A stretch of 64,000 bases of DNA from Anaerolineaceae bacterium (GTDB lineage: Bacteria; Chloroflexota; Anaerolineae; Anaerolineales; Anaerolineaceae), in contig DATKKB010000076.1 of the NCBI GenBank assembly GCA_035543095.1, positions 10,338 through 74,337 of the forward strand, given 5' to 3'. Positions 1,701 through 39,370 of this stretch are shown here, one piece after another (position 1 is the first letter of the stretch; every line of letters begins with the position of its first letter). Both the position numbers and the translations under genes were made by a program. The notes under the pieces are model-generated. The model had not been told where the DNA came from and did not search any database. It saw only the letters and a program-made list of their open reading frames with translations.

Positions 1701-1711
1701 GTTTGTGTGCA

Positions 1712-3298: not shown

Positions 3299-3332
3299 GA
3301 ATTCCGGAACTGAAAAGGATACATAACAACAA

Positions 3333-10173: not shown

Positions 10174-10194
10174 ACTTGCTGCTCCGAAAGAGAA

Positions 10195-11412: not shown

Positions 11413-11428
11413 AATTAATCTTCGGCGG

Positions 11429-11890
11429 TCAATTCACATCATTATAAGTCCAAACCCGGTTTACAAAAAAATTCCAGAACAGGATCAGGATGATAACGAA
11501 TGCCAGGGACAGGTTATGTCCTACCGAAACAGGCGTAATGATGAAATTAGAAGGCAAAACGAGTTTGGCCAGGGAAACCATGGCGTCTTCGATTCGACCA
11601 AAAATCAATGTCCGGATTCCGAGTCCGATCAGGCTTACCACGACAAATTGCATAAGCTGCCGTGCGATTGGCTTATTCCGTGAGTCAGGATAGGTCCAGA
11701 GCCGGTTCCAGGTGAAATTACTGATAACTGCAACTGAAAACGATATTACCTGGGCGCTTAAGGCGACGAAATTAAATACCTGGATCAGTAAATTAAAAAT
11801 GCCGAAATCGATCACCGCTCCAATCGTTCCAACCACTGCAAACCTTATGAAACGATTGACTTCTTTCTTATTCGAGATCATTGACGTCAT
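11429..11890 (-). CDS. GtrA-family membrane protein
   Basis: 153 aa with 4 TM segments. [20 protein letters not shown] and NRLWTY/NRVWTY motifs typical of the GtrA family. It overlaps the upstream gene by 4 nt. Confidence 0.75.
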
Positions 11891-12846
11891 ACTAATCCCA
11901 TTTTTTGTTTGAAATAAGGAATGGTGCGTTCAATCCCTTCTCTTAGAGGAATCTTGGGGCTCCAATTTAAAATCCTTTGGGCACGCGTGATGTCAGGACG
12001 CCGTTGTTGTGGGTCGTCACCCAGCCGTAAATCCGGTTTGAAAATGATCCCACCTTCATTTCCAGCGATCTGGTTGATCGTTTGGGCAAAATCCAGAATG
12101 CTGGTCTCGGCCGGATTTCCTATATTGACGGGGTAGTGTTCTTCGGACATCAGCAGCCGGTAAATCCCTTCCACGAGATCATCCACATAACAGAAGCTGC
12201 GCGTCTGTCCGCCATCCCCGTAAACGGTGAGCGGTTCGCCCCGCAAAGCCTGCTGGATAAAATTCGGTACCACTCTGCCGTCGTCCAGCCGCATCCGTGG
12301 ACCGTAAGTATTAAAGATGCGAACGATGCGAGTATTGATGCCGTGATAGCGGTGGTACGCCATCGTCAAAGCTTCGGCGAAGCGCTTGGCTTCATCGTAA
12401 ACAGAGCGCACCCCGATCGGATCGACATGGCCGAAATAAGTTTCGGATTGGGGATGCACCAGCGGATCGCCATAAATTTCGCTGGTTGACGCTAACAGGT
12501 AGCGCGCTTTATGCTCCCGGGCGACTCCCAGGGTGTTGTGCGTGCCCAATGCGCCGGCTTTCATGGTCTGAATGGGCAGGTTTGTGTATCCATAAGGCGA
12601 AAGCGGGTTCGGGCTGGCCGGAGACGCAAAATGCATGACTGCATTAATTTTACCGGGCACAAAGATAAAATTTGATACATCGTGACGGATAAAGAGGAAA
12701 TTCTCGTTGCCAGCCAGGTGCGCCAGGTTGTCGGGGCTGCCCGTAATGAAATTGTCCAATCCTATGACCTGATGTCCCTCTTTCAGGAGGCGTTCGCACA
12801 AATGAGACCCTAAAAAACCTGCTGCTCCTGTAATTAAAACGCGCAT
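11887..12846 (-). CDS. UDP-glucuronate decarboxylase (UDP-xylose synthase)-like SDR
   Basis: [29 protein letters not shown], the YDEAKR catalytic motif and [10 protein letters not shown]. The start is placed at the ATG at 12846, preceded by GAGGGA (the ORF track extends to 12870). Confidence 0.8.
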
Positions 12847-12860
12847 AGTTCCCTCGTTCT

Positions 12861-14477
12861 CTATTTCCAATCGATCCGGCTGATTAATCCGTCGCCGGTT
12901 ATTTGCTGGACCTGGCCGGTTGCCGGGTCAAGTAAATATAAGTTCCCCTGGTAAATCAAAGCCAGCCACAGCGGACTTGAATCGGCAGGCAGCGGCGACC
13001 AGACTACCTCTTGTGGTTCTAACCCCGGGCTGCCTTCCGGTGGAAATACAATCCGGCGATTCGAGCCATCCCGCTGTTCGATGACCAGGCGATACCGGCT
13101 GGTATCACTCCGGTCAGGAAAAATTGCCTGCAGAGAGGCCAGCCAGAATCGCTTCGTCGGCAGCATAGGCGAAGTCGATGGATAAGCAAACATTCCGGAC
13201 TGGGAAGCCAGGTCGACTGCAATACTTTTATCGACTGCAATTGCACTCAAGTTGAATACAGGCGATGATTCTACTGAAGACAGGCCAGATTTTGTTGGGT
13301 GAGTCACAGTATAAATAATCTTATTGTCCGGCGAAAGGCTCACCCCTGGCACCCAGGCCCAATCACCGCGTGGTTGATAAGGAAGGACGTCGATGATCGG
13401 GACGAGTTCCTTCTTGGCCAGATCCACCAATCCAATGCTGTCGGGCCGGGCGTAAGCCAGTGTTTTCCAATCCTGAGACCACGAAAAAATAGTGCCCCAC
13501 CAGCCATAGATCCCGCCAGAATTAGCCTGGAGGATTTCTTCGTTGCGAACGTAAGTGCCGGTTGAAGCAAACACAAGGCGCTGCAAATCATTATTAGCCT
13601 GCCAGCCTGGCGCCGTGAGGCGCGGCTCAACTGTTGAATAGATGACCGTATTCGGGGCGCCGGCAACCCAATCTGCAAAGTGTACGATATTTGAAACCTT
13701 GAGATTGATCGGGTTTGCGTTTTCAGTCTCGGTATCGATCACCCATAACGAGTTTATTTCCTCGGATGCCGGCCTGGTCGATTTGCGAGTGTAGAGCAGC
13801 CATTTTCCATCAGGCGATAGGGAAAATACGTGCCCATCCACGTCACCGGAAGACACGACCGGTTTCCTTTCGCCAGTCGACCTCTGCATGACCCAGGCAT
13901 TCCCGGCCGTCAGGTAGGCCAGTTTATGCGTGATCGTGACCGACGTAAACGGCGTTTGAACCCCCACCATGATGATCTCGGGTTTCGGCTCGGTGATTAT
14001 TACATTTTTGACGGGGGTTTGTGAAACCTCTATTCCGTCCTCAAAGACGTGCCGGTATGTCACCTGTTGGACACCATTCGATCCGGCCTGGATCAGGAGC
14101 GTCTGGCCTTGTGGCAGGCTTTCGTTTTTTACCTGCTGCTGGCTAAACGGAATAACCTGTTCTTCGATCTGGAATGTCTCTTTCACCCTTGTGACTTTGA
14201 CGGTTGCGGCACCGGTAATCAATGTATAAGTGGGCGGATCGACCCGGTCCAGGTTGGATAAGGTGATCCCGGCTGAATCAAGGGCGCTCTGGATAGTTGC
14301 GCCGGCCGGTACCTGCGTATTGACCTGGCGGCTATCTACCGCAATCGTAATTTTCACCAGGCCTTCGGTGGCAGTCGAGGTATTGCAGGCAGTGAGAATC
14401 AAAATGCAGCCGATCAGCGACCCGAAAAGTAACAACAAATTCACGCGCCCGGCGCGGGTAAAGGTATTTTGCCCCAT
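12861..14477 (-). CDS. secreted/anchored protein: DUF348-G5-like N-terminal module plus PD40/TolB-like beta-propeller
   Basis: 538 aa with a signal/anchor helix. The N-terminal region (ITIAVDSRQ...[10 protein letters not shown]...[18 protein letters not shown]...IIMVGV) resembles the DUF348+G5 modules of RpfB/YabE. The C-terminal part has [11 protein letters not shown] and [10 protein letters not shown] repeats. Confidence 0.55.
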
Positions 14478-14507
14478 TTAGATTCTTGTGCCAGCCTTGT
14501 CCATACC

Positions 14508-15077
14508 TTATTTTCTTTTTAATTCAATCAACATCGTCCGGTTGGTGATCGTGATACTTTCAACCTGGAAATTCACGTCGGTCTGGTTCAGGTTATTCGT
14601 GATCGCGTTATCGATCATTTCATCGATGCGGGTGAGCAGTTCGGTCGGTATGTCGATTCCCCCAACTTTCGCTGAAAGAATATCAACCTTCGGCATATGG
14701 TTGGCGTCAACGCTTACGGTTGCAACGATATTTCCGGGAGCATTGATCACGTCTGCGTCAACCTGTCCGGTCAGCAGGACCTGATTGTTCTCAAATAAGA
14801 CCTGGGCATTTTTAATGATCGGGTTCGGATCCTGGTTGAGCTGGTAAGCCACATATGAAGTGATTTGTGCTTCTGTGATCTTAATAGTTGCGACATTCCC
14901 CTGTGAATTAAGCGTTGGTTTTTGGAAGGAGTCTTGAAAATCCAGAGCGGCCTGAGTTGAAACAGGCACCGTTCTTTGGGGTGTCGGAGCAGGTCCTGTT
15001 GCGCTGAAAAGGCAGGCAAGGTTAGCGGCTAATAAGATAACAATAAGTGTTAGAATTGGAGCTAGGTTTTTCTTCAT
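14508..15077 (-). CDS. secreted hypothetical protein
   Basis: 189 aa with an N-terminal signal-like helix. No family recognised. Confidence 0.4.
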   Translation of the reverse strand: MKKNLAPILTLIVILLAANLACLFSATGPAPTPQRTVPVSTQAALDFQDSFQKPTLNSQGNVATIKITEAQITSYVAYQLNQDPNPIIKNAQVLFENNQVLLTGQVDADVINAPGNIVATVSVDANHMPKVDILSAKVGGIDIPTELLTRIDEMIDNAITNNLNQTDVNFQVESITITNRTMLIELKRK

Positions 15078-15139
15078 TATATTTAAACTCTCAATCTACG
15101 TGAAACACAAAATTTTCCAGGAGGCAGGCTTATTATAGC

Positions 15140-15709
15140 ATGAGTGATCAGGGCGAACATACTTCGCTGCCAGACTTGGGAGCGTGCCTCGAGGTCCTCT
15201 TATTCGTAGCGGCTGGGCCTGTTTCAATTGCCCAACTTGCAGAAGCGTTGGATCGCAAGCCGGTTGAGATCGAGCAGGCCTTGAAAGATCTGGCCTTAGG
15301 ATACTCCCAACGCGGAGCCCTGGCCATCCAATGGCATGCCGGCAAGGTCCAGCTTACCACATCTCCCCAAATGGCTTCCCTGGTAGAGAGGTTTTTAGGG
15401 ATGGAAACCGTCTCGCGCTTGAGCCGGGCAGGCCTTGAAGCCCTGGCAATTATAGCCTATCGCCAACCGATCACCCGCCCTGGGATCGACGCCATTCGAG
15501 GGGTTAGCAGCGATGGCGTTTTGAAGAGCCTCTTAAGCAAGGGCCTTATCCAGGAAGCTGGCCGCGCTGAAGGCCCGGGCCGGCCTATACTTTACGAGAC
15601 AACCAGTGATTTCTTGCAGCATTTTGGGCTGGCGAGCCTGGACGAGCTGCCGCCGTTCGAGCTGGAAGAGCTTGAAATTGAAAAGAAAGATAAATTATTA
15701 AAGGATTGA
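15140..15709 (+). CDS. scpB: segregation and condensation protein B
   Basis: 189 aa. LEVLLFVAAGPVSIAQLAEAL and EALAIIAYRQPITRPGIDAIRGV winged-helix repeats typical of ScpB. Confidence 0.85.
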   Translation: MSDQGEHTSLPDLGACLEVLLFVAAGPVSIAQLAEALDRKPVEIEQALKDLALGYSQRGALAIQWHAGKVQLTTSPQMASLVERFLGMETVSRLSRAGLEALAIIAYRQPITRPGIDAIRGVSSDGVLKSLLSKGLIQEAGRAEGPGRPILYETTSDFLQHFGLASLDELPPFELEELEIEKKDKLLKD

Positions 15710-16468
15710 TTGATAATGGAAGAACGCTTACAAAAAATCCTGGCCCAGGCCGGGTACGGCTCACGCCGCTCCTGTGAAGAAATAATTACTGCTGGCCGGG
15801 TCAAAGTAAACGGTAAAGTAATCAAGCTGGGTGACAAGGCTGATTCTGCCAAGGATACGATTGCCGTCGATGACACGATAATTCTGCACAGGTCTCCGTT
15901 TATTTATATCGCATTGTATAAACCACGCGAAGTTCTCTCAGACATAGATCCGAAAGATCAACGCACGACCGTGCGCGACCTGGTCAAAGTTCCCGGGCAT
16001 CTCTTCACGGTTGGCCGTTTGGATTTTGATAGTGAAGGACTGATCCTGCTGACCAATGACGGCGAGCTGGCCAACCGACTGACGCATCCGCGTTATGGAC
16101 ACGAGAAAGAGTACCGCGTTCTGGTTGATTCGCGACCTGACGAGGAACAAATTTCCATCTGGCGCCGGGGTATGGTGCTTGAGGATGGCCACCGCACCCT
16201 CCCGGCCAAAATCTCGATCGAGGGCATTGCTGGAAAGGGGGCCTGGCTGCGGGTAGTTTTGAAAGAAGGCCGGAAACGCCAGATCCGTGAAATGGGAAAA
16301 CAAACCGGCTTACACGTCTCGCGCATCATCCGCGTGCGTATTGGGAGACTCCTTCTGGGAGATCTCAAGCCCTCTGAATGGCGTTACCTGAGCCGCGAAG
16401 AAGTGCTCAAGTTGAAAAGCATAAAACAAGAGGATTCCCCTGCTGGAAAAAAAACCGGGACTGCATGA
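15710..16468 (+). CDS. rluB: pseudouridine synthase, RsuA/RluB family
   Basis: S4 domain (RLQKILAQAGYGSRRSCEEII) plus the catalytic GRLDFDSEGLILLTNDGEL. Confidence 0.85.
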   Translation: MIMEERLQKILAQAGYGSRRSCEEIITAGRVKVNGKVIKLGDKADSAKDTIAVDDTIILHRSPFIYIALYKPREVLSDIDPKDQRTTVRDLVKVPGHLFTVGRLDFDSEGLILLTNDGELANRLTHPRYGHEKEYRVLVDSRPDEEQISIWRRGMVLEDGHRTLPAKISIEGIAGKGAWLRVVLKEGRKRQIREMGKQTGLHVSRIIRVRIGRLLLGDLKPSEWRYLSREEVLKLKSIKQEDSPAGKKTGTA

Positions 16469-16486
16469 GCAGTCCCGATCTTTTTA
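16457..16486. terminator. hairpin terminator between convergent genes
   Basis: CGGGACTGC-ATGA-GCAGTCCCG followed by ATCTTTTT and preceded by an A-run. It overlaps the rluB stop codon. Confidence 0.5.
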
Positions 16487-17215
16487 AACGATGGATTCCT
16501 CTGGCAGGAATTGTTGAAATCGCCGAACCGGGTCGACCGAATCGGGATCCTTTACATCTGCGCGGTAGATATTTTCCTTGGCCTGCTTGCGAATAAAATC
16601 TTTCAGCTTCTCGATGTGCATCGCCGGTACGGGCGAGTCTTGCGCCTGGACGGTCGATTTGTCGCTTAAAAACACCATTGCCACCTGCGGCGAAGGCAGG
16701 TTTGGAATGCTCACCTCTTTCGAAATGTATTTTTGCATGTCCTGGTAAAGGTTGTATACTTCCTGGTCAGGGCGCCCCAGCCCTTCCTGGCCGAATAATT
16801 TCATAATGAAATTACCGCCCTTTTGGCTCCACCGCTTCCGGTCCGGGTTGTAGGTGATGGCGCCGCGCTGGGTAAACGTGGCCAGGATCCAGATTCCGGC
16901 CGGCCCTACCAGCAAGTGAGGAACTACGGTCATGTAATTGTAAAGGGTATATTTATCCTCGAGGCCTTTCAACCCCGCTGCCAGAACTTCATCCGGACGC
17001 GGCGACCGCCCCCACCGGTTTCCAAAATAAATTCCAACCTGCGATAATGCAAATCCAATGACCAGTGCCAGTAACGACCACCCAAACAATCCTGGATTCG
17101 ATGTATCGAGCGAAATAATAAAGCCGATCACCAGGATTGCCAGGCTGGCAATCGTTGTGTACTGGCCGATCTTTTTGTTGCGCCGGATGTACTTTTCATT
17201 AGTGACGATTTTCAT
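16484..17215 (-). CDS. membrane-anchored protein with a possible NERD-like domain
   Basis: 243 aa. Two N-terminal TM helices are followed by a soluble part whose pattern (KYTLYNYMTVVPHLLVGPAGIWILATFTQRGAITY) resembles NERD domains. Weak call. Confidence 0.35.
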   Translation of the reverse strand: MKIVTNEKYIRRNKKIGQYTTIASLAILVIGFIISLDTSNPGLFGWSLLALVIGFALSQVGIYFGNRWGRSPRPDEVLAAGLKGLEDKYTLYNYMTVVPHLLVGPAGIWILATFTQRGAITYNPDRKRWSQKGGNFIMKLFGQEGLGRPDQEVYNLYQDMQKYISKEVSIPNLPSPQVAMVFLSDKSTVQAQDSPVPAMHIEKLKDFIRKQAKENIYRADVKDPDSVDPVRRFQQFLPEESIV

Positions 17216-17216
17216 T

Positions 17217-18239
17217 CTATTTTCCTGGTGGAACCACTTGTGGTTTGATCATTCTTTCCTGGATGGCCTTGCTGATGTGCCCCAATAGATCTGCCCGGAC
17301 GGCCAGAACAGCGGTACCGATAGCGCTGGTAATAGCGTGGGCATTCGACCGGCCGTGTCCTACGAAAACCAACCCGTTCACGCCTAAAAGCGGAGCGGCG
17401 CCAACCTCTGATGGGTCGACTTGTTTCAATACTTTTTTGAGAGCGGGCTTAACCATTAACCCGCCCAGGCTGCTGACAAGTGAAGATTTAATCCCTTCGG
17501 AAATCAAATCTTTCATCAAGCTGGCTACTGCTTCGCTTGATTTTAACATGATATTGCCCGTAAACCCGTCACAAATGACCACATCCGCCGCTCCTCCGAA
17601 TAAATCTTTTGGCTCGACGTTTCCGATAAAATTCAATCCGCTCGTTTCCATCAACGGGTAAGCGCTTTTTACAAGCAAGTTCCCTTTGCCCTTTTCTTCG
17701 CCGTTGGCAATCAGGCCAACCCGAGGGTTTTTCACCCCCAAAACTTTTTCGGCGTAAATGCTGCCCATGATTCCAAATTCGGGAAAGAATTCAGGCCGGC
17801 AGTCGGCGTTTGCGCCGATGTCGCACACCACGACGCGGCCTTTTCGGGTCGGGAAGATGGCTGTCAGAACCGGGCGCTGGACGCCTGCCATACGTTTCAG
17901 GGTAATCGCGGAAACGAACAAAGCGGCTCCTGTATTTCCAGCCGTCACGAAGGCTGCTCCCTCGCCGGACTTAACCAACTCCATCCCGATTGCCATGGAG
18001 TTGTGAGGCTTTTCCTTGGCGCTGGCGACGGCTTTGTCGCCCATCTCGAGCATTTCTGGGGCTTGTACGAGGCTCACCGGCAAATTCCTTGTATTTAACG
18101 CCTTCAAGCGCGGCTCAACCAGGTCGCTTTTACCGACCAGGATTATTTTTTCGCCGTACAATTCTGCGGCCTCCAATGCACCTGTGACTTCCGGCTCCGG
18201 AAAGAGATCGCTGCCCATGGCGTCCAGGATAATGGTCAT
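17217..18239 (-). CDS. plsX: phosphate acyltransferase PlsX
   Basis: 340 aa. IILDAMGSD, FVTAGNTGA and VCDGFTGN motifs. Confidence 0.9.
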   Translation of the reverse strand: MTIILDAMGSDLFPEPEVTGALEAAELYGEKIILVGKSDLVEPRLKALNTRNLPVSLVQAPEMLEMGDKAVASAKEKPHNSMAIGMELVKSGEGAAFVTAGNTGAALFVSAITLKRMAGVQRPVLTAIFPTRKGRVVVCDIGANADCRPEFFPEFGIMGSIYAEKVLGVKNPRVGLIANGEEKGKGNLLVKSAYPLMETSGLNFIGNVEPKDLFGGAADVVICDGFTGNIMLKSSEAVASLMKDLISEGIKSSLVSSLGGLMVKPALKKVLKQVDPSEVGAAPLLGVNGLVFVGHGRSNAHAITSAIGTAVLAVRADLLGHISKAIQERMIKPQVVPPGK

Positions 18240-29446: not shown

Positions 29447-31759
29447 TTATTCAATTAATTGATCAGGGCTGGCGCGCATAAAGTAAGATCGAAATGCGGC
29501 CGTTTCTTGTAACAGGGCAATTAATTCTGATTCAATTTTAACCAAATTGATCTGGTTTTTCGAGCCTCCCTGGACCAGTGAAAAGACCATTTCCGGCTCT
29601 TCTGTGTATTGAATTTCGCCCTGGGCCGTCCACCACTCGATGCCTTTTCGAACGGTCGTTTCGCGCTGCGCGGTCGACGCTGCCAGATCCTGGATCGAGA
29701 CCTGGCCCTGGCGTTTATTGATTGCGAACCGGACCAGGCCTGCCAGGCGAGTCAGGAATTCCCCTGGCTTATCCTTTGCGGATAGGATCCCGAAAAAAGC
29801 AACCCGGGCCGGTTGAGCAACAGACAGGATGCCGCGCAGCTCCGATAAGCCGGGCGGAATGTTCCATAATGCCAGCGTGCTGGCCAACCGGAGATGAAAC
29901 CGGTCCAATCCGGAAACACTGTAGAGCCTTTCGCCCTCCTGCCAGATCAGAGTGTCGCTCGATTTTACAAGCTGTTCCAGCACTTTTGCCGGTTCTGCGT
30001 CATTTCTAAAATCTAAAAGCTCGACCTGTGGGCGGCTGGAGCGGATTTTCGTTTCTTCCTGGATCGGGCGGGCGTGGACCCATTCGATTTGAATGCTGCG
30101 CTCGCCGCGATAATTACTGGCGCGTACCGAATAAGCCAGGTCAAAACGCTCTTCGGGTAAGGGAAAGCCTGCGCCCTGCCACCAGATCACTTTACGGGTG
30201 GCGCCGGTTGGATCCTCGACTATAAGCTGCAAGTGCTCTCCGCCTTTGCCGATGGGAGAGAAGCTGCGCAAGACCAAATTGCGCGTAGCCAATATAAGCG
30301 ATGGGTTGCCAGGTCCAAACGGCGCCAGGCGGTCGAGCGTCTCAACCAGCTCCATGGTCAGGCTCTCCAGCGGAAGGTAGGCGTCGATGGCAATCTGGTG
30401 AAAGCCTGGCATTTCTTGAGTTGTGGATTTCACAGCGCTGATGATGCCCGCCCGGAATTTTGGAATCTTATCGGATTCGATTGAGAATCCTGCCGCCATT
30501 GGATGCCCGCCGTAAGTGATCAGCAGATCTTGGGTACTTTCAAGGGCGGCGGTGATATCGATGCCTTCAACCGACCGGGCCGACCCTCGCCCCGGCAAGT
30601 CAGGCGGGTTGGCAATTAAAATGGTCGGGCGGTTGTACAGCTCGACCAGCCGGCTGGCGGCAATGCCGATCACGCCGGCCGGCCAGTTTGGATGGCTTAG
30701 AACCAGAACGGGATTGGACAGCAGAGTGGGATCACCATCCAATTGCGATTGGGCTGCCTGGAATACCTGGTCGCACAGCAGTTTACGTTGAGTGTTCAAG
30801 GCTTCAATTTGCAGGGACAGGTTTCTGGCCTCACCGATGTCGCGGCTCAATAAGAACGGAACAGCCGGGTTAGCGTCCGAAAGGCGTCCAAGCGCATTCA
30901 AGCGCGGCGCCAGGATAAAGCTGATGTGCTCCTCGGTCAATTGCGTGTAGTTAATTGCAGCCTGCTCCAGGATTGCCTGGATTGCCGGCCTGGGATGGCT
31001 GCGGATTAGCCTGACCCCGCGTTGAACGAAAAACCGGTTTTCGCCGGTCAGTCTTGCCAGATCGGCGATTGTCCCAAGTGCAACCAGGTCCTGGTATTCC
31101 AGAGCCTCCTGGGGTTGCTGGTAATAATCGAAGAGACCCTCGACCAGCTTATAGGCGCATCCCACTCCGCACAATGGGTTCAAAGGATGTGAAACGGGTA
31201 ATCGCTGGGGATTCACTACAGCCAGTGCATTAGGCAGCTCCGGCGGCAGGGTATGGTGATCGGTAATCACAACGTCGATACCTTGCCCTTGGGCGTACTC
31301 GACTTCCAAGTGCGCAGAAATGCCTGTATCGCAGGTCAGTAACAGCCTGACACCTTTATCAACAAACGCCTGCAATCCGCCGATCGTTATCCCGTGCGAT
31401 TCTCTCGCTCTGACGGGGATGTAATAAGATACATTTGCACCCAGTTTATTCAATGCTGCATACAGCACTGCCGTGGCGGTCTGTCCGTCGACGTCGAAAT
31501 CGCCCCAGATGCCGATGTGTTCTCCAGTTGATATTGCTTTTGCCAATCGCTCGACGGCTTGCTCCATATCCGGCATTTCCGTTGCCGGTGCAGGAAGGTA
31601 TTTATTGGGATCCAAAAATGCCTTGGCTTGCTCGCTCGTTGCGATGCCGCGGCGCGCCAAAGCCTCTGCCAGCATTCGGTCGTCCCCGGCAAGCTGGAGC
31701 AGGGATGGCGCGACTTCAACCGGTTCAGGCTCTCGCCATATTATCTCTTCCGCCCTCAA
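29447..31759 (-). CDS. recJ: single-stranded-DNA-specific 5'-3' exonuclease RecJ (long form, 770 aa)
   Basis: DHH-family motifs GDFDVDGQT, LLTCDTG and VITDHH, plus the DHHA1 motif GGHPMAAG. The TTG start overlaps the upstream stop (TTGA). Confidence 0.9.
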   Translation of the reverse strand: MRAEEIIWREPEPVEVAPSLLQLAGDDRMLAEALARRGIATSEQAKAFLDPNKYLPAPATEMPDMEQAVERLAKAISTGEHIGIWGDFDVDGQTATAVLYAALNKLGANVSYYIPVRARESHGITIGGLQAFVDKGVRLLLTCDTGISAHLEVEYAQGQGIDVVITDHHTLPPELPNALAVVNPQRLPVSHPLNPLCGVGCAYKLVEGLFDYYQQPQEALEYQDLVALGTIADLARLTGENRFFVQRGVRLIRSHPRPAIQAILEQAAINYTQLTEEHISFILAPRLNALGRLSDANPAVPFLLSRDIGEARNLSLQIEALNTQRKLLCDQVFQAAQSQLDGDPTLLSNPVLVLSHPNWPAGVIGIAASRLVELYNRPTILIANPPDLPGRGSARSVEGIDITAALESTQDLLITYGGHPMAAGFSIESDKIPKFRAGIISAVKSTTQEMPGFHQIAIDAYLPLESLTMELVETLDRLAPFGPGNPSLILATRNLVLRSFSPIGKGGEHLQLIVEDPTGATRKVIWWQGAGFPLPEERFDLAYSVRASNYRGERSIQIEWVHARPIQEETKIRSSRPQVELLDFRNDAEPAKVLEQLVKSSDTLIWQEGERLYSVSGLDRFHLRLASTLALWNIPPGLSELRGILSVAQPARVAFFGILSAKDKPGEFLTRLAGLVRFAINKRQGQVSIQDLAASTAQRETTVRKGIEWWTAQGEIQYTEEPEMVFSLVQGGSKNQINLVKIESELIALLQETAAFRSYFMRASPDQLIE

Positions 31760-32610
31760 AATTCGATCTCCCCAATTTGCTCGAACCCCTGGTCCGTGTC
31801 CGGAAACACTGCGGCTTCCTGTTCATCTTCCTGGTCTGATGCAGAGCCTGCCTTCTCGCCGCGATCGCACAGGGATCGAAAATTGCAGAAAAGACATTTT
31901 TTCACGTCTGGCGTGAGGGTAAAGCGACCTGGCTCGTGTTGCGCGATTTCCTGGATCAATTCCTCCAGGTGTGCCTTATCTTCAACGTACATCTTTTCAT
32001 TATATTTGAAGGTTTCCGGCTCTGATGGAGCTTCGGCAAACCAGTACACCATTTCAACCTGTTCGGGCGCCAGAATCTGGCCTCCGTTCAGGTACGCGCC
32101 TGCTGCGACGAGCAGGTAACGGTACACTCGCGTTTGCAAGCGAGTCTTTAAAGCATTCCGGGCGGGTTTGCGAGCTGAGGTTTTCCAATCCACAATCACG
32201 GCTCTCTTCCCGGGCTCGATCGCAATTAGATCAAATTGAGCCGCAATCCGGTACCCTGCCAGAGGCGCCGATAGATAAATTTCGGCCCAACGACTGGAGG
32301 GCAGGCTTGCCAGCGGTTCAGCCTGCAAAAAATTGTCCCACCAGTGGCTCACATCTGTATCCGGCAAGGTCTCCCGGATCTGCTCCGCCTCGATCCCAGC
32401 CACGTATTGTTGGACCATCTGGTGGAACTGCCTCCCGGCTTCAATCCGTTGTTCTTGCTCGATGACGGGCTCGCTATCCAGGGCCGGCCATTCAAGGCGC
32501 TGAATATAGCGCAGCTCGAACCGCCGCGGGCAGTCGAGGTAATCCTGCAAATTGTTCTGGCTGAAATGAAAATCAGGTTTCAAGCCCATCGTCGTCCGGT
32601 TTTCGCTCAT
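31756..32610 (-). CDS. stand-alone PD-(D/E)XK nuclease with a Cas4/AddB-type four-Cys cluster
   Basis: 284 aa. The N-terminal Cys lies in LQDYLDCPRRFELRY. The catalytic core is FDLIAIEPGKRAVIVDWKT (D...D-x-K). QTRVY gives QxxxY. The C-terminus has CLFCNFRSLC (CX2CX5C). Confidence 0.8.
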   Translation of the reverse strand: MSENRTTMGLKPDFHFSQNNLQDYLDCPRRFELRYIQRLEWPALDSEPVIEQEQRIEAGRQFHQMVQQYVAGIEAEQIRETLPDTDVSHWWDNFLQAEPLASLPSSRWAEIYLSAPLAGYRIAAQFDLIAIEPGKRAVIVDWKTSARKPARNALKTRLQTRVYRYLLVAAGAYLNGGQILAPEQVEMVYWFAEAPSEPETFKYNEKMYVEDKAHLEELIQEIAQHEPGRFTLTPDVKKCLFCNFRSLCDRGEKAGSASDQEDEQEAAVFPDTDQGFEQIGEIEF

Positions 32611-34851
32611 TTATACACCCACCTGGTCGATTTCATCCTTCCAAAATTCGCATAGGTGTTGAAAAGCCAGGGCAGGATGAAGGTCATTATTGCGGCCTGA
32701 ATTCCAGGATATGTGCAGCTCTCGCTTGGCGCGCGTGATGCCGACGAACAGTAATCTCAAACGCTCACGGGCATAATCCAGTCTGGCTTCGCGCGTTGCA
32801 AAACCCGGCTCCAGGTTGATACCGGCCAGATCCTTTGCCATCAGCGCCTTCAATTGGGACAGAGTCTCCGCTTCCAGATTCAGTCTGCCGCGGATGTACC
32901 ATTTTTCCGCAATGTAATGGTCCCCATCCTCGCCAGCAGGAAAGTCATAGTTATTTGCGGAGAGCAGGTAGACTCGATCCCATTCCAGCCCTTTCGCTTT
33001 GTGAAGCGTGGCAATCACAACTTTTCCCTTATGCTGCTCCGGGTCGAAACCCTGGTCTTCCTCTCCGAACCCCAGGAACTTCCGCTCGTTGCGGATGATC
33101 GTTTGGAGCTCCTCATTAAATTCCGGCAGGTGCCATTCTGGATGAGCCCTGGCCGCCTGTTCCAGCGACACGGCCAATTTGTGCGCCAGGGCCAGGTCGG
33201 ACGGCCGCTCGAAAACGTCTTGCGCAATGGTGATGATGAGCTGGTCAATCGGCAGCAGGGTTGCCTGCTCCCAGGACTTAATTTGAGTGCGAAAGTCCCC
33301 TAAAAGGTACAGCAGGGTCGCCGAAGTCCCTCCGGCTCGTAAACCTGCCAGATAATCGCGGCCGGCCAAAGGCCACAGAAATTCCTCAACCCTCTGGCAT
33401 TTACGCAGCAGGCTGGCGCCTTCCAAGATCAGGTCTATTTTTTGCAGGTCCTCTTCTTTTTGATGGAGATTGCGGAAAGCATTCGTCAATTTGGCGATCG
33501 AAGTGGGGTCCGAAAGATATTGAAGAATGCTTGAGATCAAGTTGATAGCCTGACGGGTCGAGCTGGTGCTGTTTAACAGCTCGACCGGCTGGATGCCTAT
33601 TTTCTTGAGCTCTACCGCAATTTCTGAGCCGCGCTTGTTGCGTGGATCCAGGACGGCGATCGTTTCCTCAGGGTGGTCGGGCAGCCAGCGTTTGATTGAA
33701 TTTACGACAGCCTGTACTTCATCAGACGGCGTGAAGCTACGTTCGGACAGCACCAGCGCCCGCGGGTTATCTTTCGGATTGGGCTGTGAATCTCCATAAA
33801 GGGTGGGTTCGATCAACGGCTCGGTCAATGCGTTCCGCAGAGCTTCATTCGGGTGTTCGAATTCGGTCCAGCGGATCAGCTCGTTGGCCAACCGGATAAT
33901 GGAATGCGTCGAGCGGCCTGATTGCGGTAGCGGCAGGCTGAGCACGCCTGGGTTTTGCAGGAACTGTTTAAGATATTCTGGGCTGGCAGTCGTGAAAGTC
34001 TCGTAAATCGCCTGGTTTGGATCGCCTACTCGCACCCAGTTGCCGTCCTCGCCTGCCAGCAGCCGCAGGATTTCTTCCTGCAGGCGGCTTGAATCCTGCG
34101 CTTCGTCTTCGAGGATATATGGCCAGCGCCTTTTAAGCCTTTGCAGGTATTCCGGGTCCGTTTGCAGCGATTGCAGGGCGTACCGGATCAAGTCGTCGAA
34201 ATCCAGCGCGCTGCGATAATTGAGCGCCCTCTGGTAGCTGGCATAGATCTCGATCCCCATCTCGAGCAAGGGGTAATATGACCGGAGTGCCAATAATTGA
34301 GTTTGAAGCGCATCCGGCGCAACCTGGTAGTCTTTTGCCAGCCGGATGAAGCTTTTTGCCAGTGAAACGACCAGCAGCGGCCAGTCTTTGCGGGCAGAAT
34401 TGATCCGGTATGGTTCCAGGTCGGGATCGGTCAGCATGTCGAGCACATCCGGCCGCGTCCGCAGCCAGGCCAGGGCCGCGTCTCTGAGGATCTCGTCCGA
34501 ATCGCGTTCGTCTGCAATTACGAACCGGTCCGAAAGTCCGGCCAGATCGGGTCGTTCGCGCACAATGTCGTAAGCCAGGCCATGCAAAGTCCGCACCCGG
34601 TAGCCGAATTGGGCAGGCAGTCCTTTGCTTTTCATTTCTACGTCGATCCTGCGCCCGAAATTATCGACAGCCGAATTGACCAGCGTGACGATCAGAACTT
34701 CCTGGTCATCGTCCAACAATCCTCCGGATACCAGCCCGGCTGCCATGCTGGAAAGCGTCTGGGTTTTACCGCTCCCGGGCACGGCCGAAACGCCCATCCA
34801 GCCGTGGTTGTACTCGAGGATACGCTCCTGGTGCGGCCTGGGCCTAAACAT
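32611..34851 (-). CDS. UvrD/Rep-type SF1A DNA helicase (no nuclease domain)
   Basis: Walker A AVPGSGKTQT, Walker B ILEDEAQD, motif III VGDPNQAIY, motif V TLHKAKGLEWD and motif VI VGITRAKREL. The protein ends about 30 aa after motif VI. The start is placed at the ATG at 34851, 4 nt after the upstream TAG (the ORF track extends to 34917). Confidence 0.85.
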   Translation of the reverse strand: MFRPRPHQERILEYNHGWMGVSAVPGSGKTQTLSSMAAGLVSGGLLDDDQEVLIVTLVNSAVDNFGRRIDVEMKSKGLPAQFGYRVRTLHGLAYDIVRERPDLAGLSDRFVIADERDSDEILRDAALAWLRTRPDVLDMLTDPDLEPYRINSARKDWPLLVVSLAKSFIRLAKDYQVAPDALQTQLLALRSYYPLLEMGIEIYASYQRALNYRSALDFDDLIRYALQSLQTDPEYLQRLKRRWPYILEDEAQDSSRLQEEILRLLAGEDGNWVRVGDPNQAIYETFTTASPEYLKQFLQNPGVLSLPLPQSGRSTHSIIRLANELIRWTEFEHPNEALRNALTEPLIEPTLYGDSQPNPKDNPRALVLSERSFTPSDEVQAVVNSIKRWLPDHPEETIAVLDPRNKRGSEIAVELKKIGIQPVELLNSTSSTRQAINLISSILQYLSDPTSIAKLTNAFRNLHQKEEDLQKIDLILEGASLLRKCQRVEEFLWPLAGRDYLAGLRAGGTSATLLYLLGDFRTQIKSWEQATLLPIDQLIITIAQDVFERPSDLALAHKLAVSLEQAARAHPEWHLPEFNEELQTIIRNERKFLGFGEEDQGFDPEQHKGKVVIATLHKAKGLEWDRVYLLSANNYDFPAGEDGDHYIAEKWYIRGRLNLEAETLSQLKALMAKDLAGINLEPGFATREARLDYARERLRLLFVGITRAKRELHISWNSGRNNDLHPALAFQHLCEFWKDEIDQVGV

Positions 34852-36952
34852 TTTCGCTCTCCGTTGTAAGCGGGATGCGGCGGAAAATGCTCTGCACTGC
34901 CTGCAGCAGCGGTCCACGCTGGTCGTCTCCCTGCTCGTTCATCCGGTTCGTGAACAAAAAGATGCCCTTCCGGCAGCGTCGTATCAGGCCTGTGGTCAGG
35001 CGGGCCAGGGCGGCCTGGTTAGCTGAAACTTCGTCGGCGTCGGTCCATACCCGCCCCTTGGGCCAGTTACGCGTCAGCACATATGGGTGTGTCAGCGGTT
35101 GGTACAGGCGTTCCCACCAGCCCTGCGATCCCAGGTCCAGCCAGAACTGGTAATCCACCGCCCGGTTAGCCGATAGGAAGGTAAAAGCAGGCGAAATAAA
35201 TACGGCATCCGAAGGCCGTTCCTCCCAATTGACCAGGTATTGGGCTGCCACCACGCCTTCTTCCACCATGCGGATGTATTCCATCCCATGGGATTGTCCG
35301 GCCTTACGGATCGACTCGCCCGTTGCCCAGCGGAATTTCTTAATCGACTCTACTAGCCTGGCCGCGACTGCGGCCGCATCGAAGTTATCGTGGAAGCCAA
35401 ACCCGGGCTGTGAAAGCAGTTCGCCGAACAGGCGGCTGATGAAAATATCCAGCTCCGGAGCCGGGTTGGTTCGGTAGTCTTGCAGCCAATTCCGCAGGCG
35501 TTCAAACTTTTCTCCCAGGGCATACGTGATCCGTTCCTGCTGGTCCGGGAGGATTACGTCGAACGAGCCCATCCCTTCGGCGAGGATTTTTTTGGGCCGG
35601 AAAACGATCTGCGAAAGCAGGTCGGCCCGCACCAGGTCCATTCCGGCGATCGCCTGCATTAAGGCTGTTCTCACATCGTAATGCGTGCAGGTCAGTCCCC
35701 ATTCCGGGTGCGCCAGGCGTGCCAGGGTCAGCAGGCACAGCGTCGCCGGTTCTTCGCGCAGGCTGCGTGAAGGCCGGTGAGAGCGGGTGGGAATGGACCG
35801 CTTCTCGAGGCTGCTCGCCAGCGTAAATCGCAGCGCATCCGAAAGAAATGGGGCCAGGATGCTGATTTCACCCGGCAGCGTACCCTGGTTTTGGACCAGG
35901 TCAGCTACCTGGTCTGCCACCTCCTCCACCATTTCCGGCAGGTAGCGGCTGCCGTTGTACGTGACGGTGTCCCGAATTCCCGGCTCAATTACGGGCGGCG
36001 TAGAATGGACCAGTTTTGCTGTCAATGCCTGCCTGAAATCCTCCAGGGTGCGAGGAACGATATATGATTCTGTAAAAGTAATGACCTCGCTGCAACCGGC
36101 CTGCAGGGCCAAACCGCTCTGCGGATCGGCTCCCAAAAAAGAACGGTAGCCCCCATCGCTGTCATAGATCAACAAGGCCGATTCAAACGACGGCAGCCAC
36201 TGCTGGATAATGTCATGAGCAACTGGAACATCTTCCTCGACATTGTCGTAAATTAAATGGCGGTAAGTCGCCGACAGGTACTCCCTGCACAGGAATGACG
36301 GCCAGAGATCTTTCGCGAAGACCTCATACTGGAGTGAAAAGTCGAGCAAATTGTTTTGCAGGCAAAACTTGCGGAAAAGCGTAGCGCATTCCTGGGCTTC
36401 GTCATAAACATGCTGCTGCGCCGGCTCGCCAACCCAGGCTGCTTTAAGCAGCTCTCCGATGTCGGTGTAAGGAATTCCAATGGCAGCAGCCTTATTCAAG
36501 TTGTCGATGATCTGGCTGAGCAGGCGGTTGCGATCGATCTTGATGCTTTGAAAGTAACCTTTTTCCAGCAAGGGCCTGACCAACTGCGCCAGGTAGTATT
36601 GGGCCGTCTCGAGAGTCAGGAAAGTGGGAGGTTGCCGTTTCTTACCGAATCCCGCCCTTCGGCCAATTAACGGCCAGAACAACGAGATCATGCGCTGCCC
36701 CAATCCTCCCAGCGTTACAATGGTAGGATTTCCGCCAGGCATCCTATCAGGCCGGGCCAGGGCGTCAAAATAAGGCCTGGCCAGCGTGCGCTGCGGAACC
36801 AGGATCAAGATCTGGCTGGCAGGGATACCTGCGTCCACCAGGGCCTGGTATCGTCCGACTCCAGCTGTAGTTTTACCGGTGCTTGCTGGCCCCATCAAGA
36901 ACAAGCGCGCATCGAGAGGAGCCCGGATCACCTGGTCCTGTTCATTACTCAT
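34844..36952 (-). CDS. degenerate SF1 helicase-like protein (AddB/RecC-like candidate)
   Basis: 702 aa. The Walker A is intact (MGPASTGKTT). IYDNVEED stands where DExQD is expected. A weak motif III-like YDSDGGYRSFLGADP is present. I could not find a TxHxxKGxE or TRA motif. Confidence 0.55.
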   Translation of the reverse strand: MSNEQDQVIRAPLDARLFLMGPASTGKTTAGVGRYQALVDAGIPASQILILVPQRTLARPYFDALARPDRMPGGNPTIVTLGGLGQRMISLFWPLIGRRAGFGKKRQPPTFLTLETAQYYLAQLVRPLLEKGYFQSIKIDRNRLLSQIIDNLNKAAAIGIPYTDIGELLKAAWVGEPAQQHVYDEAQECATLFRKFCLQNNLLDFSLQYEVFAKDLWPSFLCREYLSATYRHLIYDNVEEDVPVAHDIIQQWLPSFESALLIYDSDGGYRSFLGADPQSGLALQAGCSEVITFTESYIVPRTLEDFRQALTAKLVHSTPPVIEPGIRDTVTYNGSRYLPEMVEEVADQVADLVQNQGTLPGEISILAPFLSDALRFTLASSLEKRSIPTRSHRPSRSLREEPATLCLLTLARLAHPEWGLTCTHYDVRTALMQAIAGMDLVRADLLSQIVFRPKKILAEGMGSFDVILPDQQERITYALGEKFERLRNWLQDYRTNPAPELDIFISRLFGELLSQPGFGFHDNFDAAAVAARLVESIKKFRWATGESIRKAGQSHGMEYIRMVEEGVVAAQYLVNWEERPSDAVFISPAFTFLSANRAVDYQFWLDLGSQGWWERLYQPLTHPYVLTRNWPKGRVWTDADEVSANQAALARLTTGLIRRCRKGIFLFTNRMNEQGDDQRGPLLQAVQSIFRRIPLTTESENV

Positions 36953-36956
36953 TTGC

Positions 36957-37631
36957 TTATTTTAGTCCAGGATCAGGTCGTGTGCCAGTAATTTTTTTCC
37001 GCGCCTGGGAGACCCCAACGGTCGCAAAATTAAAGCGGTGGTTGCTGACCCAACGGCGTACAGGCGGCAGGCGCATCACTAAGAGAAAAGCCAAAATGCT
37101 CCCATAAAGAAGAGGCTGGCGATAATCTGCCTTGACTGACCAGATGTAATGGATCACTGCTAAAAGGCCGATCAGATAGGAAAGGCGGTGCAGCCGCTGC
37201 CAGTTCTTGCCGAGGCGTTTCATCGAAAGGCGGGTTGAAGTGATTGCGAGTGGAATGATTAACAACAGGGCTGAAAAGCCAACAATGATAAACCGTTTTT
37301 GACCGTAATCAGCCAGGATCCAGCTGATATTTAGCTTGTAATCGATAACAAGGAACGTCAGGAAATGGAGGCACACGTAAAAGAAAGCGTATAACCCGAG
37401 CGCCCGCCTGACTTTTAAAACCTGGCGAAAACCGGTCAGGGTGTTGATCGGCGTGACCGCCAGCGAGAGCAAGATCCAGATGATAGCATATTGGCCGGTG
37501 CGCTGCTCGACGGCCTGGACCGGATTAACAGTTAAATCGGCATTCAGCCAATCGAAGATCAACACTGCCAGCGGAATCAAGGACGCAGCGTGAACGAAAA
37601 GCTGGAAGCGTGAGAAGCGCAGGTATTTCAA
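36957..37631 (-). CDS. msrQ: protein-methionine-sulfoxide reductase heme-binding subunit MsrQ (YedZ)
   Basis: 224 aa, a 6-TM ferric-reductase-like protein with conserved His in the helices (CLHFLTF, AVIHYIW). It overlaps msrP by 4 nt. Confidence 0.8.
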   Translation of the reverse strand: MKYLRFSRFQLFVHAASLIPLAVLIFDWLNADLTVNPVQAVEQRTGQYAIIWILLSLAVTPINTLTGFRQVLKVRRALGLYAFFYVCLHFLTFLVIDYKLNISWILADYGQKRFIIVGFSALLLIIPLAITSTRLSMKRLGKNWQRLHRLSYLIGLLAVIHYIWSVKADYRQPLLYGSILAFLLVMRLPPVRRWVSNHRFNFATVGVSQARKKITGTRPDPGLK

Positions 37632-38599
37632 AAATTTTGCTTCAAATCCATACCGTCATACAGGCTTGAAACCTGGGAATAGCCGTTGAATTTCAAAGTC
37701 GGGCGCCTGCCAGATCCGATCCGCAGCTCGGTCGATTGCGACCAGCGCGGATGGGGAACCTCGGGGTTGACGTTGGCATAAAAACCGTATTCATTCCGTG
37801 CGGCGAGCATCCAGAGGCTTACGGGCATTTCCTTAACCAGATCGATCTTGACTATGGCTTTAATATTTTTAAAGCCATACTTCCATGGCACCACCAGGCG
37901 CACGGGTGCCCCATCCTGGTTCGGCAGCGTTTTACCGTAGAGGCCGGTCGCCAGGAGGGTCAGGTCATTCATGGCCTCGTCCACCCGCAGCCCCTCGACG
38001 TAAGGCCATTGAAAAAAGGTGTCATTTTGGCCCGGCATTTGCCTGGGGTCGTAGACCGATTCAAACCGCACGTATCTGGCGTCCGATGTTGGTTGGACTT
38101 CTGCCAGCAGCTTGTTGAGCGCGAAGCCCTCCCACGGAATAACCAGGGACCAGCCTTCAACACATCGCAGCCGGTAGATGCGTTCTTCCTGCGTAAATTT
38201 CTTACGAATATCGTCGATGTCGTAGGTCTTTGGATTGTTGACCAATCCGCCCACCTTTACCTGCCAGGGTGACGTGATGAAATTTTGGGAGAGCGGCGCC
38301 ACGCCCGCCTTATCCGTGGTGAACTCGTAGTAATTGTTGTAATTTGTGATGTCCTGGTAACTGTTAGCAGGATCGCTCAGCTCGTCCTTCAGCCCTGCCG
38401 CCGAGGGCGCCGCGCCGGAGCTCGCCGCACCAGGCGTGGAAAATCTTGGAGTGCAGGCCGCTAAAACGGCGGCCGTTGTCGTCCAAAATGCGCCCTTAAG
38501 AAACCGGCGACGGTTGAAATAAACATGCTCGGGCGTAATATCTGAGGATTTGAAATTTTCCATTAACGATAGCCTGTAATTCTCATAATCGAGCGTCAT
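37628..38599 (-). CDS. msrP: protein-methionine-sulfoxide reductase catalytic subunit MsrP (YedY), Mo-molybdopterin, Tat-exported
   Basis: Twin-arginine signal NRRRFLKGA, plus YNNYYEF, RLRCVEGWS, PVRLVVPWKYGFKNIKAIVKI, EYGFYANVNP and HPRWSQ. Confidence 0.9.
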   Translation of the reverse strand: MTLDYENYRLSLMENFKSSDITPEHVYFNRRRFLKGAFWTTTAAVLAACTPRFSTPGAASSGAAPSAAGLKDELSDPANSYQDITNYNNYYEFTTDKAGVAPLSQNFITSPWQVKVGGLVNNPKTYDIDDIRKKFTQEERIYRLRCVEGWSLVIPWEGFALNKLLAEVQPTSDARYVRFESVYDPRQMPGQNDTFFQWPYVEGLRVDEAMNDLTLLATGLYGKTLPNQDGAPVRLVVPWKYGFKNIKAIVKIDLVKEMPVSLWMLAARNEYGFYANVNPEVPHPRWSQSTELRIGSGRRPTLKFNGYSQVSSLYDGMDLKQNF

Positions 38600-38794: not shown

Positions 38795-39370
38795 TTAACT
38801 TGCGCCCGCAATATACAGCAGCAGTTCTCTTGCCAGGAGCGTATCCGCCAGGGCACGGTGGGCATTTGGCAGGGATATTGCGCTGGCCGTTCCTGCTTCC
38901 TCCAGAGTGTAGAACTTCCATGACTTGCGCGCCGGATCCCACACGCCCCGGAATTGAGCGTAAAGTTTTAGCAGGTCGTACGAGTGCAGGCTTTCGCGCC
39001 AGGGCAGCCGGTAGCGGTCGTGGGACTGCTGCATCATGCGGAGGTCAAATTCAGTATTATAGGCAACGATCACCTTCCCTGTGAGAATGGGCCGGATTTG
39101 CTGGACCCACAGGATGGGCCACGTCGGCGCTCCCTGCACCATCTCATTCGTAATATTGTTGATTCTGGTTGCATCTAGCGGGATTGGCTGGCTCGGGCGG
39201 ACAAACGAATCTACCAGCACCTGGCCTTCCGAATCGACGATGGTTATTTCAACGATCTCGTCTGACCGGTTCAGACCGGTCGTTTCGGTATCCAGGTAGA
39301 CGGGTTTTACTTCCAATACCTTGCGCGCCGTTTGAATGGCCTGTTGGCGGGCCGTAGTTGAATTGAACAT
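38795..39370 (-). CDS. DEDDh 3'-5' exonuclease (DnaQ-like, stand-alone)
   Basis: 191 aa. Exo I YLDTETTGL, Exo II AYNTEFDLRMM and Exo III HRALADT. Confidence 0.8.
   Translation of the reverse strand: MFNSTTARQQAIQTARKVLEVKPVYLDTETTGLNRSDEIVEITIVDSEGQVLVDSFVRPSQPIPLDATRINNITNEMVQGAPTWPILWVQQIRPILTGKVIVAYNTEFDLRMMQQSHDRYRLPWRESLHSYDLLKLYAQFRGVWDPARKSWKFYTLEEAGTASAISLPNAHRALADTLLARELLLYIAGAS

Follow-up and report, generated by a model that had tools for sequence, protein, structure and literature searches.

A conserved four-gene module of Anaerolineae that may process DNA ends with an AddAB-like logic

The window analyzed here is a 64,000-nucleotide stretch of contig DATKKB010000076.1 (assembly GCA_035543095.1) from an Anaerolineaceae bacterium, and within it four consecutive minus-strand genes, numbered 1 to 4 in the order in which they are read, encode a helicase-like protein, a UvrD-like helicase, a four-cysteine PD-(D/E)XK nuclease and RecJ. 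We propose that the four genes specify a DNA-end-processing helicase-nuclease module that follows an AddAB/AdnAB-like logic, with its parts as separate polypeptides and with a single PD-(D/E)XK nuclease, and we give this proposal a probability of about 0.55. Evidence for it includes the persistence of the gene order in distant lineages, the pairing of a helicase fold that has lost its catalytic glutamate with an intact motor, and the predicted membership of the nuclease in the iron-sulfur (Fe-S) class found in AdnA and AddB. The module is most likely an undescribed multi-protein relative of the AddAB/AdnAB break-processing machines. Its features are as follows.

Gene 1, 34844-36952, minus strand: 702 aa; superfamily 1A (SF1A, UvrD-fold) helicase-like protein, predicted to be inactivated
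Gene 2, 32611-34851 (ATG start), minus strand: 746 aa; UvrD-like SF1A helicase, predicted active, without a nuclease domain
Gene 3, 31756-32610, minus strand: 284 aa; stand-alone four-cysteine PD-(D/E)XK nuclease
Gene 3 tail, last ~45 aa, 31759-31893, minus strand: disordered acidic linker and conserved tip
Gene 4 (recJ), 29447-31759, minus strand: 770 aa, TTG start; bacterial RecJ

Gene junctions and the conservation of the gene order

The open reading frames (ORFs) and their coordinates are as given in a first-pass annotation made from the sequence, which had described four consecutive minus-strand genes with essentially no spacing between them. Two of the three internal junctions can be read directly in the form in which they were reported, as genes 2 and 3 meet in TAAATG at 32613/32610 with a gap of 0 nt, and the TTG start of recJ overlaps the TGA stop of gene 3 by 4 nt (TTGA) at 31759/31756. 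The junction between genes 1 and 2 had been given as a TAG separated by 4 nt from an ATG at 34846/34851, and here the coordinates are correct and the spacer is not, because the ATG of gene 2 (34851-34849) is upstream of the TAG that ends gene 1 (34846-34844) and the two genes share an 8-nt overlap, ATGTTTAG. The reading frame of gene 2 also stays open further upstream, as far as a GTG at 34917. Shine-Dalgarno-like sequences (GGAG, GGTG or GGGGAG) are found 9-14 nt ahead of all three internal starts. The first ATG of gene 4 encodes Met29, and a recJ start upstream of it is plausible because alignments with RecJ homologues begin at query residues 8-20. A promoter/terminator scan detected no terminator-like site at any of the module's junctions and a weak promoter-like site (9/12 match) just upstream of gene 1, while the SOS site GAAC-N4-GTTC has a single copy in the window, at 56042, far from the module and in keeping with chance frequency.

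The flanking genes are packed just as tightly as the module itself, so that its standing as a unit has to be judged from other genomes. The family of gene 1 has more than 6000 homologues, with 576 representatives at 50% clustering and E ≤ 1e-30, in at least 568 species-level genomes, mostly of Anaerolineae, and the best 80 of these genomes all belong to that class, including the cultured Anaerolinea thermolimosa. Linkage was counted in 58 related loci with 8.5 kb or more of sequence downstream of gene 1. Gene 2 is kept in 51 of them and gene 3 in 45, and all four genes stand in unchanged order in 40/58. Overlaps, or gaps of ≤30 nt, were found at 45 of the 67 gene 1/gene 2 junctions, at 48 of 57 between genes 2 and 3, and at 29 of 44 between gene 3 and recJ. 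The same order recurs outside this set in five unrelated contexts, where gene 1 is 26-42% identical to that of the window.

L083, Clostridiales metagenome-assembled genome: four-gene order kept; spore-photoproduct-lyase gene nearby
L085, metagenomic contig: four-gene order kept
L086, metagenomic contig: order kept, with an extra gene between gene 3 and recJ
L088, Salinibacter ruber M8 plasmid pSR56 (56 kb; NC_014028.1, record 10001-17884): complete module
L090, Acetivibrio clariflavus (cultured): four-gene order kept; housekeeping neighbors

The order is thus conserved both in related loci and in distant lineages with unrelated flanks, and it is the distant recurrence that is decisive. All four proteins of the plasmid copy, in a Rhodothermota halophile, are 40-44% identical to those of the window, and this uniform identity argues for transfer as a single block, RecJ included. 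They carry the NCBI labels hypothetical protein, ATP-dependent helicase, PD-(D/E)XK nuclease and RecJ, and near them on pSR56 lie genes for a SocA-type antitoxin, an XRE regulator and a recombinase, together with a DEAD/DEAH helicase gene of 3.9 kb. Taken together, these sequence comparisons indicate that the four genes are a conserved, co-inherited and co-transferred module that moves as a block between phyla. In two of the distant loci a further gene accompanies the module. In L085 (7613-8719) the gene next to gene 1 on its upstream side encodes an Exo_endo_phos (EEP, ExoIII-like) nuclease/phosphatase, and the extra gene of L086 (15238-16347), between gene 3 and recJ, encodes an N6/N4 DNA methyltransferase, a hint of a restriction-like or self-marking association.

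The four proteins of the module

The motor of the proposed machine is gene 2, which matches both of the Pfam families that had been predicted for it, PF00580 (5.5e-43) and PF13361 (2.5e-22). Its motifs I (GSGKT), Ia, II (DEAQD), III (GDPNQ), V and VI (TRA) are 88-100% conserved among 68 orthologues, and the protein stops 38 aa past motif VI, so that the earlier description of a full SF1A motif set in a protein ending soon after motif VI is borne out on both counts. The best sequence matches in the PDB are UvrD, Rep and PcrA, with AdnB and AddA weaker. Gene 2 nevertheless stays under every NCBIfam equivalog cut-off, with 65.8 bits against 707.65 for addA (TIGR02785), 80 against 696 for recB (TIGR00609) and, as the best score among the UvrD, PcrA and Rep equivalogs, 135 against 951 for Rep. 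Judged by these scores, gene 2 belongs to a UvrD-like subfamily distinct from the housekeeping UvrD/PcrA/Rep orthologues, and its motifs are those of an intact SF1A motor, which would be the sole competent motor of the module.

Gene 1 is informative only through its predicted fold, as sequence searches gave no family placement. It has no significant Pfam or NCBIfam match and matches no addB model at E ≤ 0.01, and phmmer and profile searches of the PDB, like an hhalign comparison with gene 2, returned only N-terminal similarity at the level of a Walker A motif. In the AlphaFold2 model, however, a complete four-subdomain SF1A fold is seen (pLDDT, the predicted local distance difference test score, 87; pTM, the predicted TM-score, 0.84), which Foldseek matches over its full length to UvrD, Rep and PcrA (E 1e-21 to 1e-18), with TM-scores (TMq) of 0.59-0.61 to AddB and 0.65 to AdnB. 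The Walker A motif is G21-x2-G24-x-G26-K27-T, with GxGKT 93-95% conserved in 90 sequences of the family. Motif II reads D236-N237-V-E239-E240-D, which a profile alignment places onto motif II of HelD (DEAQD), and in the family consensus D-N-x-E-E-D the Asn and the first Glu are present in 100% of the 90 sequences. Because this invariant Asn occupies the position of the motif II Glu, the catalytic Glu, which comes after the Walker B Asp in all active SF1 helicases, is replaced family-wide. The view that gene 1 keeps only a Walker A was therefore roughly correct as far as family models go, and too narrow in that the motif-II-like D-N-x-E-E and further motif-like blocks (YRxFLGADP, RSHRPSRSL and GLxRRCR) are also conserved, which suggests a functional nucleotide-binding, non-motor protein.

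From the model, then, gene 1 is predicted to be a full SF1A helicase fold that has lost its catalytic glutamate and kept its nucleotide loop. AddB shows a degeneration of the same kind, since its UvrD-like fold of four subdomains retains just motif I and a Walker-B Asp and acts as the Chi scanner, with ATP binding stabilizing Chi recognition (PMC3321194). The AddB/RecC-like character that had been expected of gene 1 holds at the level of the fold, which is comparable to AddB's N-terminal region, to AdnA/B and to UvrD, and finds no counterpart in any sequence model. Long relatives of gene 1 (P0239, of 1419 aa, P0260 and P0295) were considered as Rosetta-stone fusions and proved uninformative, as their extra parts are FtsX or methyltransferase sequences that are probably gene-call run-throughs. 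In Caldilineaceae, gene 1 overlaps a small S-adenosylmethionine (SAM)-methyltransferase gene, and the two are joined in some gene calls (P0295).

Gene 3 matches PF12705 (1.3e-31), a family of the type anticipated for it. Its cysteines (C27...C239-x2-C242-x5-C248) and the catalytic residues D127, D141-W-K143 and Q159xxxY163 are 96-100% conserved, in agreement with its original description as a PD-(D/E)XK nuclease with a C...CX2CX5C cluster. It carries the only domain of this kind in the module, as had been noted, the gene 1 model being wholly of SF1 fold. All of the 120 best relatives of gene 3 are likewise free-standing proteins of ~276 aa. A metagenome-assembled genome of Anaerolineaceae has an annotated product identical to gene 3, in keeping with the family of the window. 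The AlphaFold2 model (pLDDT 82) gives its lowest Foldseek E-values with ACE1, an Argonaute-associated nuclease of the Cas4 family, and also matches EXO5 and the Cas4 protein SSO0001. The best TM-score is with the nuclease domain of AdnA (TMq 0.60, root-mean-square deviation ~5 Å), and the fold matches to AddA, RecB, AddB (E 1.5e-3) and AdnB are weaker. The score against Cas4 (TIGR00372) is 28 bits, with a cut-off of 65. By fold and motifs together, gene 3 is predicted to be an Fe-S "iron-staple" nuclease of the AdnA/AddB/Cas4 class.

The tail of gene 3 is a feature in its own right. In the window it ends ...FEQIGEIEF, and the tip has the consensus (L/F)DF(E/D)QI(A/G)EI(E/A)(F/Y)-COOH with an aromatic last residue in 55/58 orthologues, while distant members end in DWDDTPEIPY or LDDVEEIEF. 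The C-terminal tip of the single-stranded DNA-binding protein (SSB) recruits RecJ and other repair enzymes. The acidic, aromatic-ended tip of gene 3 resembles it and, by this analogy, may serve as a tether to RecJ or to the helicases, which is a speculative assignment. There is no SSB gene in the window or in any of the related loci that were retrieved.

Gene 4 scores 507 bits against the RecJ model TIGR00644 (cut-off 396.9), contains the Pfam domains DHH, DHHA1 and RecJ_OB, matches RecJ structures in the PDB at 1e-84 to 1e-60, and has 100% conserved DxD, DHH and GGH motifs. Its annotation as a 770-aa RecJ is therefore upheld, and on these sequence criteria it is a bona fide bacterial RecJ. 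A C-terminal extension of ~210 aa, the conservation of which reaches into distant modules, has only marginal PF10141/winged-helix matches and no PDB match. The extension was considered as a module-specific trait, and with such marginal matches this is not supported.

Proposed mechanism, known machines and alternatives

In the mechanism that we propose, gene 2, as a UvrD-type SF1A helicase, would move along the 3'-ended strand in the 3'-5' direction, unwinding the DNA from a duplex end, and gene 1 would pair with it as a non-motor partner, giving a heterodimer analogous to AddB-AddA or AdnA-AdnB. Gene 1 would provide a scaffold and a channel for single-stranded DNA, as do the dead helicase domains of AddB and RecC, and it might also scan the sequence, with ATP binding acting as an allosteric switch. 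Gene 3, placed at the fork, would cleave the 5'-ended strand that is displaced there, and RecJ would processively degrade the same strand from the ends or nicks so produced. The outcome would be a single-stranded 3' tail onto which RecA could be loaded, probably via RecFOR, with no built-in nuclease for the 3' strand. It should be noted that the first-pass annotation had RecJ supplying degradation of the second (5') strand, and that this division of labor is not supported. The 5' strand is the one cleaved by the nucleases of AdnA and AddB (PMC12094033), and since the closest four-cysteine nucleases (AdnA, AddB, Cas4 and EXO5) are themselves 5'-strand or 5'-3' enzymes, gene 3 and RecJ probably act on the same strand. 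With gene 3 in the 5'-strand class, the module therefore has no evident 3'-strand nuclease.

The module shares with AddAB one active SF1A motor and an inactivated UvrD-fold partner with a Walker A/Walker-B-Asp site (AddB), a four-cysteine Fe-S PD-(D/E)XK nuclease assigned to the 5' strand, and a dead-helicase gene placed first in the operon. It differs in several ways. The nuclease (284 aa) is a protein separate from the dead helicase and is encoded after the motor gene, the motor lacks a nuclease, which leaves the module with a single nuclease in place of two and with no evident enzyme for the 3' strand, a recJ gene is included, and no AddA or AddB sequence model reaches threshold. Specifically, AddA is a motor-nuclease fusion of ~1200 aa recognized by the addA equivalog, whereas gene 2 has 746 aa and no nuclease domain; the helicase-nuclease fusion of AddB is represented by genes 1 and 3, which are separate and not adjacent; and the two nuclease sites of AddAB, one per strand, are reduced to that of gene 3. 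The likeness to AdnAB lies in the two UvrD-like subunits encoded in tandem and in the best TM-scores, 0.60 between gene 3 and AdnA and 0.65 between gene 1 and AdnB. However, both Adn subunits have fused nucleases, in contrast to the single free nuclease and RecJ found here, and AdnA retains Walker A and B (PMC3321194) whereas gene 1, with its family-wide Asn in 100% of 90 sequences, is without the catalytic Glu. As for RecBCD, the recB score is under the cut-off and neither the module nor the window has a RecD-like SF1B gene. RecJ is the only known component that is recognized in full, by score, domains and motifs. Gene 3 does not qualify as a CRISPR Cas4, there are no cas genes in the neighborhood of the module, and it belongs instead to the wider PF12705/Cas4-like four-cysteine superfamily. 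Gabija and the other PADLOC systems are not represented either, gene 2 giving generic GajB/UvrD matches with no GajA or cognate partner and gene 1 a match at E ~1e-3. Since it lacks the defining features of AddAB, AdnAB and RecBCD, the module is not to be filed under any of them, and it plausibly works like them.

We found no description of such a three- or four-protein architecture in the literature searched, beyond one passing note, in line with the first-pass annotation, which knew of none. That note is in Hudaiberdiev et al. (2017; PMC5704561), where a monophyletic solo-Cas4 was reported in many Chloroflexi, together with an operon of unfused UvrD and a Cas4-like protein (PF12705), "mostly in Clostridiales" and in a non-defense context, for which a repair role was suggested. 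These are probably the same loci as the module, although the paper does not mention an inactivated helicase or RecJ and proposes no AddAB-like machine. In Deinococcus radiodurans, UvrD and RecJ have been proposed to make the 3' tails of extended synthesis-dependent strand annealing (ESDSA) without RecBCD or AddAB (PMC2806897), but there uvrD and recJ are unlinked and have neither a dead-helicase partner nor an Fe-S nuclease, whereas here they are in one predicted operon. Most cyanobacteria are reported to be without RecBCD/AddAB (PMC12094033), and in Synechococcus elongatus a Cas4-family Fe-S nuclease, a second UvrD paralogue and a RecJ paralogue share a loss-of-function phenotype (PMC10653904). 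This RecJ paralogue is long (775 aa), as is gene 4, but the cyanobacterial genes are not known as a cluster, and recJcy (Synpcc7942_0517) has unrelated neighbors. ACE1, finally, works with Argonaute, and none is present here.

Several observations weigh against our proposal. No NCBIfam sequence model puts genes 1 and 2 in the AddB and AddA families, and gene 1 is not assignable to AddB or RecC from its predicted structure, as the UvrD, AdnB and AddB folds match it about equally. The order dead helicase, motor, nuclease is unlike the domain order of addB-addA, so that the idea of a "disassembled" AddAB-like machine is apt for the split parts and fails as a simple disassembly of AddB and AddA. 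The recJ gene is non-adjacent in ~30% of Anaerolineae loci, and gene 1 is solitary in ~10% of them and alone in 4/9 distant lineages (L084, L087, L089 and L091, where genes 2 and 3 and recJ are all missing within 10 kb), the hosts being Caldilineaceae, an unplaced contig, an Ilyobacter polytropus chromid (21% identity) and a Desulfolucanica-like contig. Because recJ and gene 1 are sometimes unlinked in this way, gene linkage does not make the partnership obligatory. The spacing in the window proves nothing alone, because the msrPQ and oxidoreductase genes abut equally tightly: the msrQ stop is only 4 nt ahead of the gene 1 ATG, msrP and msrQ overlap by 4 nt, and the oxidoreductase gene begins 17 nt past recJ. 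Clostridia generally carry AddAB, which would argue against simple replacement, and there the module is more likely to be additional.

The alternative that survives best, although we regard it as unlikely, is a repair operon without a stable machine, in which co-regulated members of a RecF-type route act sequentially or independently at gaps, stalled forks and ends, and gene 1 is a regulatory or accessory UvrD paralogue. The functional pairing of UvrD and RecJ in Deinococcus was proposed without complex formation (PMC2806897), RecJ and gene 3 are at times unlinked from genes 1 and 2, the solitary gene 1 of Caldilineaceae, Ilyobacter and others fits an accessory protein, and the sequence of gene 2 is nearer to UvrD/PcrA/Rep than to AddA/RecB/AdnB. 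Such loose co-regulation, however, has to be reconciled with a Glu-less helicase fold that lies almost always directly upstream of its active paralogue, often overlapping it, which is the pairing of a dead with an active paralogue that is typical of obligate partners (AddB, RecC and AdnA), and with the movement of all four genes together to a plasmid and across phyla.

A role in limiting plasmids, phages or DNA uptake, in which the module would degrade foreign linear or replicating DNA or make guides or fragments for other immune systems, is in our judgment quite improbable. The first-pass annotation had taken phage defense as the main alternative, and what speaks for it is above all the complete copy on pSR56, which lies next to genes for a toxin-antitoxin component and a recombinase and to a large DEAD/DEAH helicase gene. 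The occurrence outside Anaerolineae is patchy, implying horizontal transfer, the lowest Foldseek E-values of gene 3 are with the Argonaute-associated ACE1, and in L086 a methyltransferase gene separates gene 3 from recJ. In S. elongatus, loss of the cas4-like gene, of uvrD or of recJcy each raises RSF1010 maintenance and transformation (PMC10653904), but the link from these cyanobacterial genes to the module is drawn by analogy. The idea is weakened by the modules of Anaerolineae and A. clariflavus, which lie among housekeeping genes and outside defense islands, by an apparently vertical conservation across the whole class, by PADLOC matches that are only of a generic family kind (GajB/Cas4 similarity), and by the absence of any gene 1 relative from INPHARED phages or IMG/VR. 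Defense would in any case be compatible with end processing, as RecBCD does both. Incidental synteny of four unrelated DNA-metabolism genes, kept together in a compact genome by shared ancestry only, might be suggested by the equally tight msrPQ and GFO/IDH/MocA genes and by the synteny of the oxidoreductase pair in close relatives, but it is extremely improbable and effectively refuted, because the four-gene order persists across phyla where the flanks are wholly different, and msrPQ is not upstream in most relatives.

We therefore return to the end-processing module with AddAB/AdnAB-like logic, of which a more comprehensive version can be offered tentatively. In it, Anaerolineae would have the module as their resident machine for double-strand-break resection, some Clostridia and plasmids would carry it as an auxiliary one, and it would form a fourth architectural class beside RecBCD, AddAB and AdnAB. 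The dead helicase, the live helicase and the free iron-staple nuclease would form a heterotrimer that resects the 5' strand only, a dedicated RecJ would be recruited by the SSB-tail-like peptide, the whole would travel as a mobile four-gene cassette, and it might represent the unfused ancestor of AddAB/AdnAB. About 12% of bacterial genomes have no recognizable RecBCD, AddAB or AdnAB, and how recombinational repair starts in them is largely unknown. The module is widespread and unnamed, gene 1, which has the NCBI label "hypothetical", being present in at least 568 species genomes, and AddAB logic combined with RecJ, if true, would fill part of this gap for Anaerolineae, a major environmental class. 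If true, it would also be a naturally "exploded" machine with motor, scanner and nuclease as separate proteins, which bears on the evolution of the fused enzymes. As the hosts include the cultured Acetivibrio clariflavus, Anaerolinea thermolimosa and Salinibacter ruber M8, the hypothesis is directly testable.

The surrounding window

The rest of the 64-kb window consists of housekeeping genes, with no defense genes among them, and no AddAB, RecBCD or AdnAB genes lie within the window. Two features upstream of gene 1 are of interest.

msrP/msrQ, 36957-38599, minus strand: molybdopterin oxidoreductase and ferric-reductase-like membrane protein
RNase_T/DnaQ-like gene, 38795-39370, minus strand: 191 aa; DEDD 3'-5' exonuclease

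The msrPQ pair stands between the RNase_T-like gene and gene 1 only in the window and in L003, and is missing upstream in most relatives. As the msrQ stop so closely precedes the gene 1 ATG, the repair genes may here share a transcript with periplasmic methionine-sulfoxide repair. The RNase_T/DnaQ-like gene, with a 3-keto-disaccharide-hydrolase-like gene before it, is the immediate upstream neighbor of gene 1 in no fewer than 14 Anaerolineae loci (L001, L002, L008, L013, L023, L026, L028, L048, L056, L057, L060, L063 and L065 among them). It is not present in the distant modules, and its product could be a lineage-specific 3'-strand nuclease partner. Downstream of recJ is a GFO/IDH/MocA oxidoreductase gene, and the oxidoreductase pair is syntenic in close relatives.

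Elsewhere in the window, two adjacent plus-strand ORFs of 531 and 501 aa (1703-4838) that follow a PMT_2 glycosyltransferase-like gene are without a Pfam match at E ≤ 1e-5. Two further genes are unlinked to the module, a CinA-like gene at 56381-57523 and a minus-strand ORF at 62216-63430 that joins a HAD-like hydrolase to a C-terminal DinB_2 (DinB/YfiT-like) domain.

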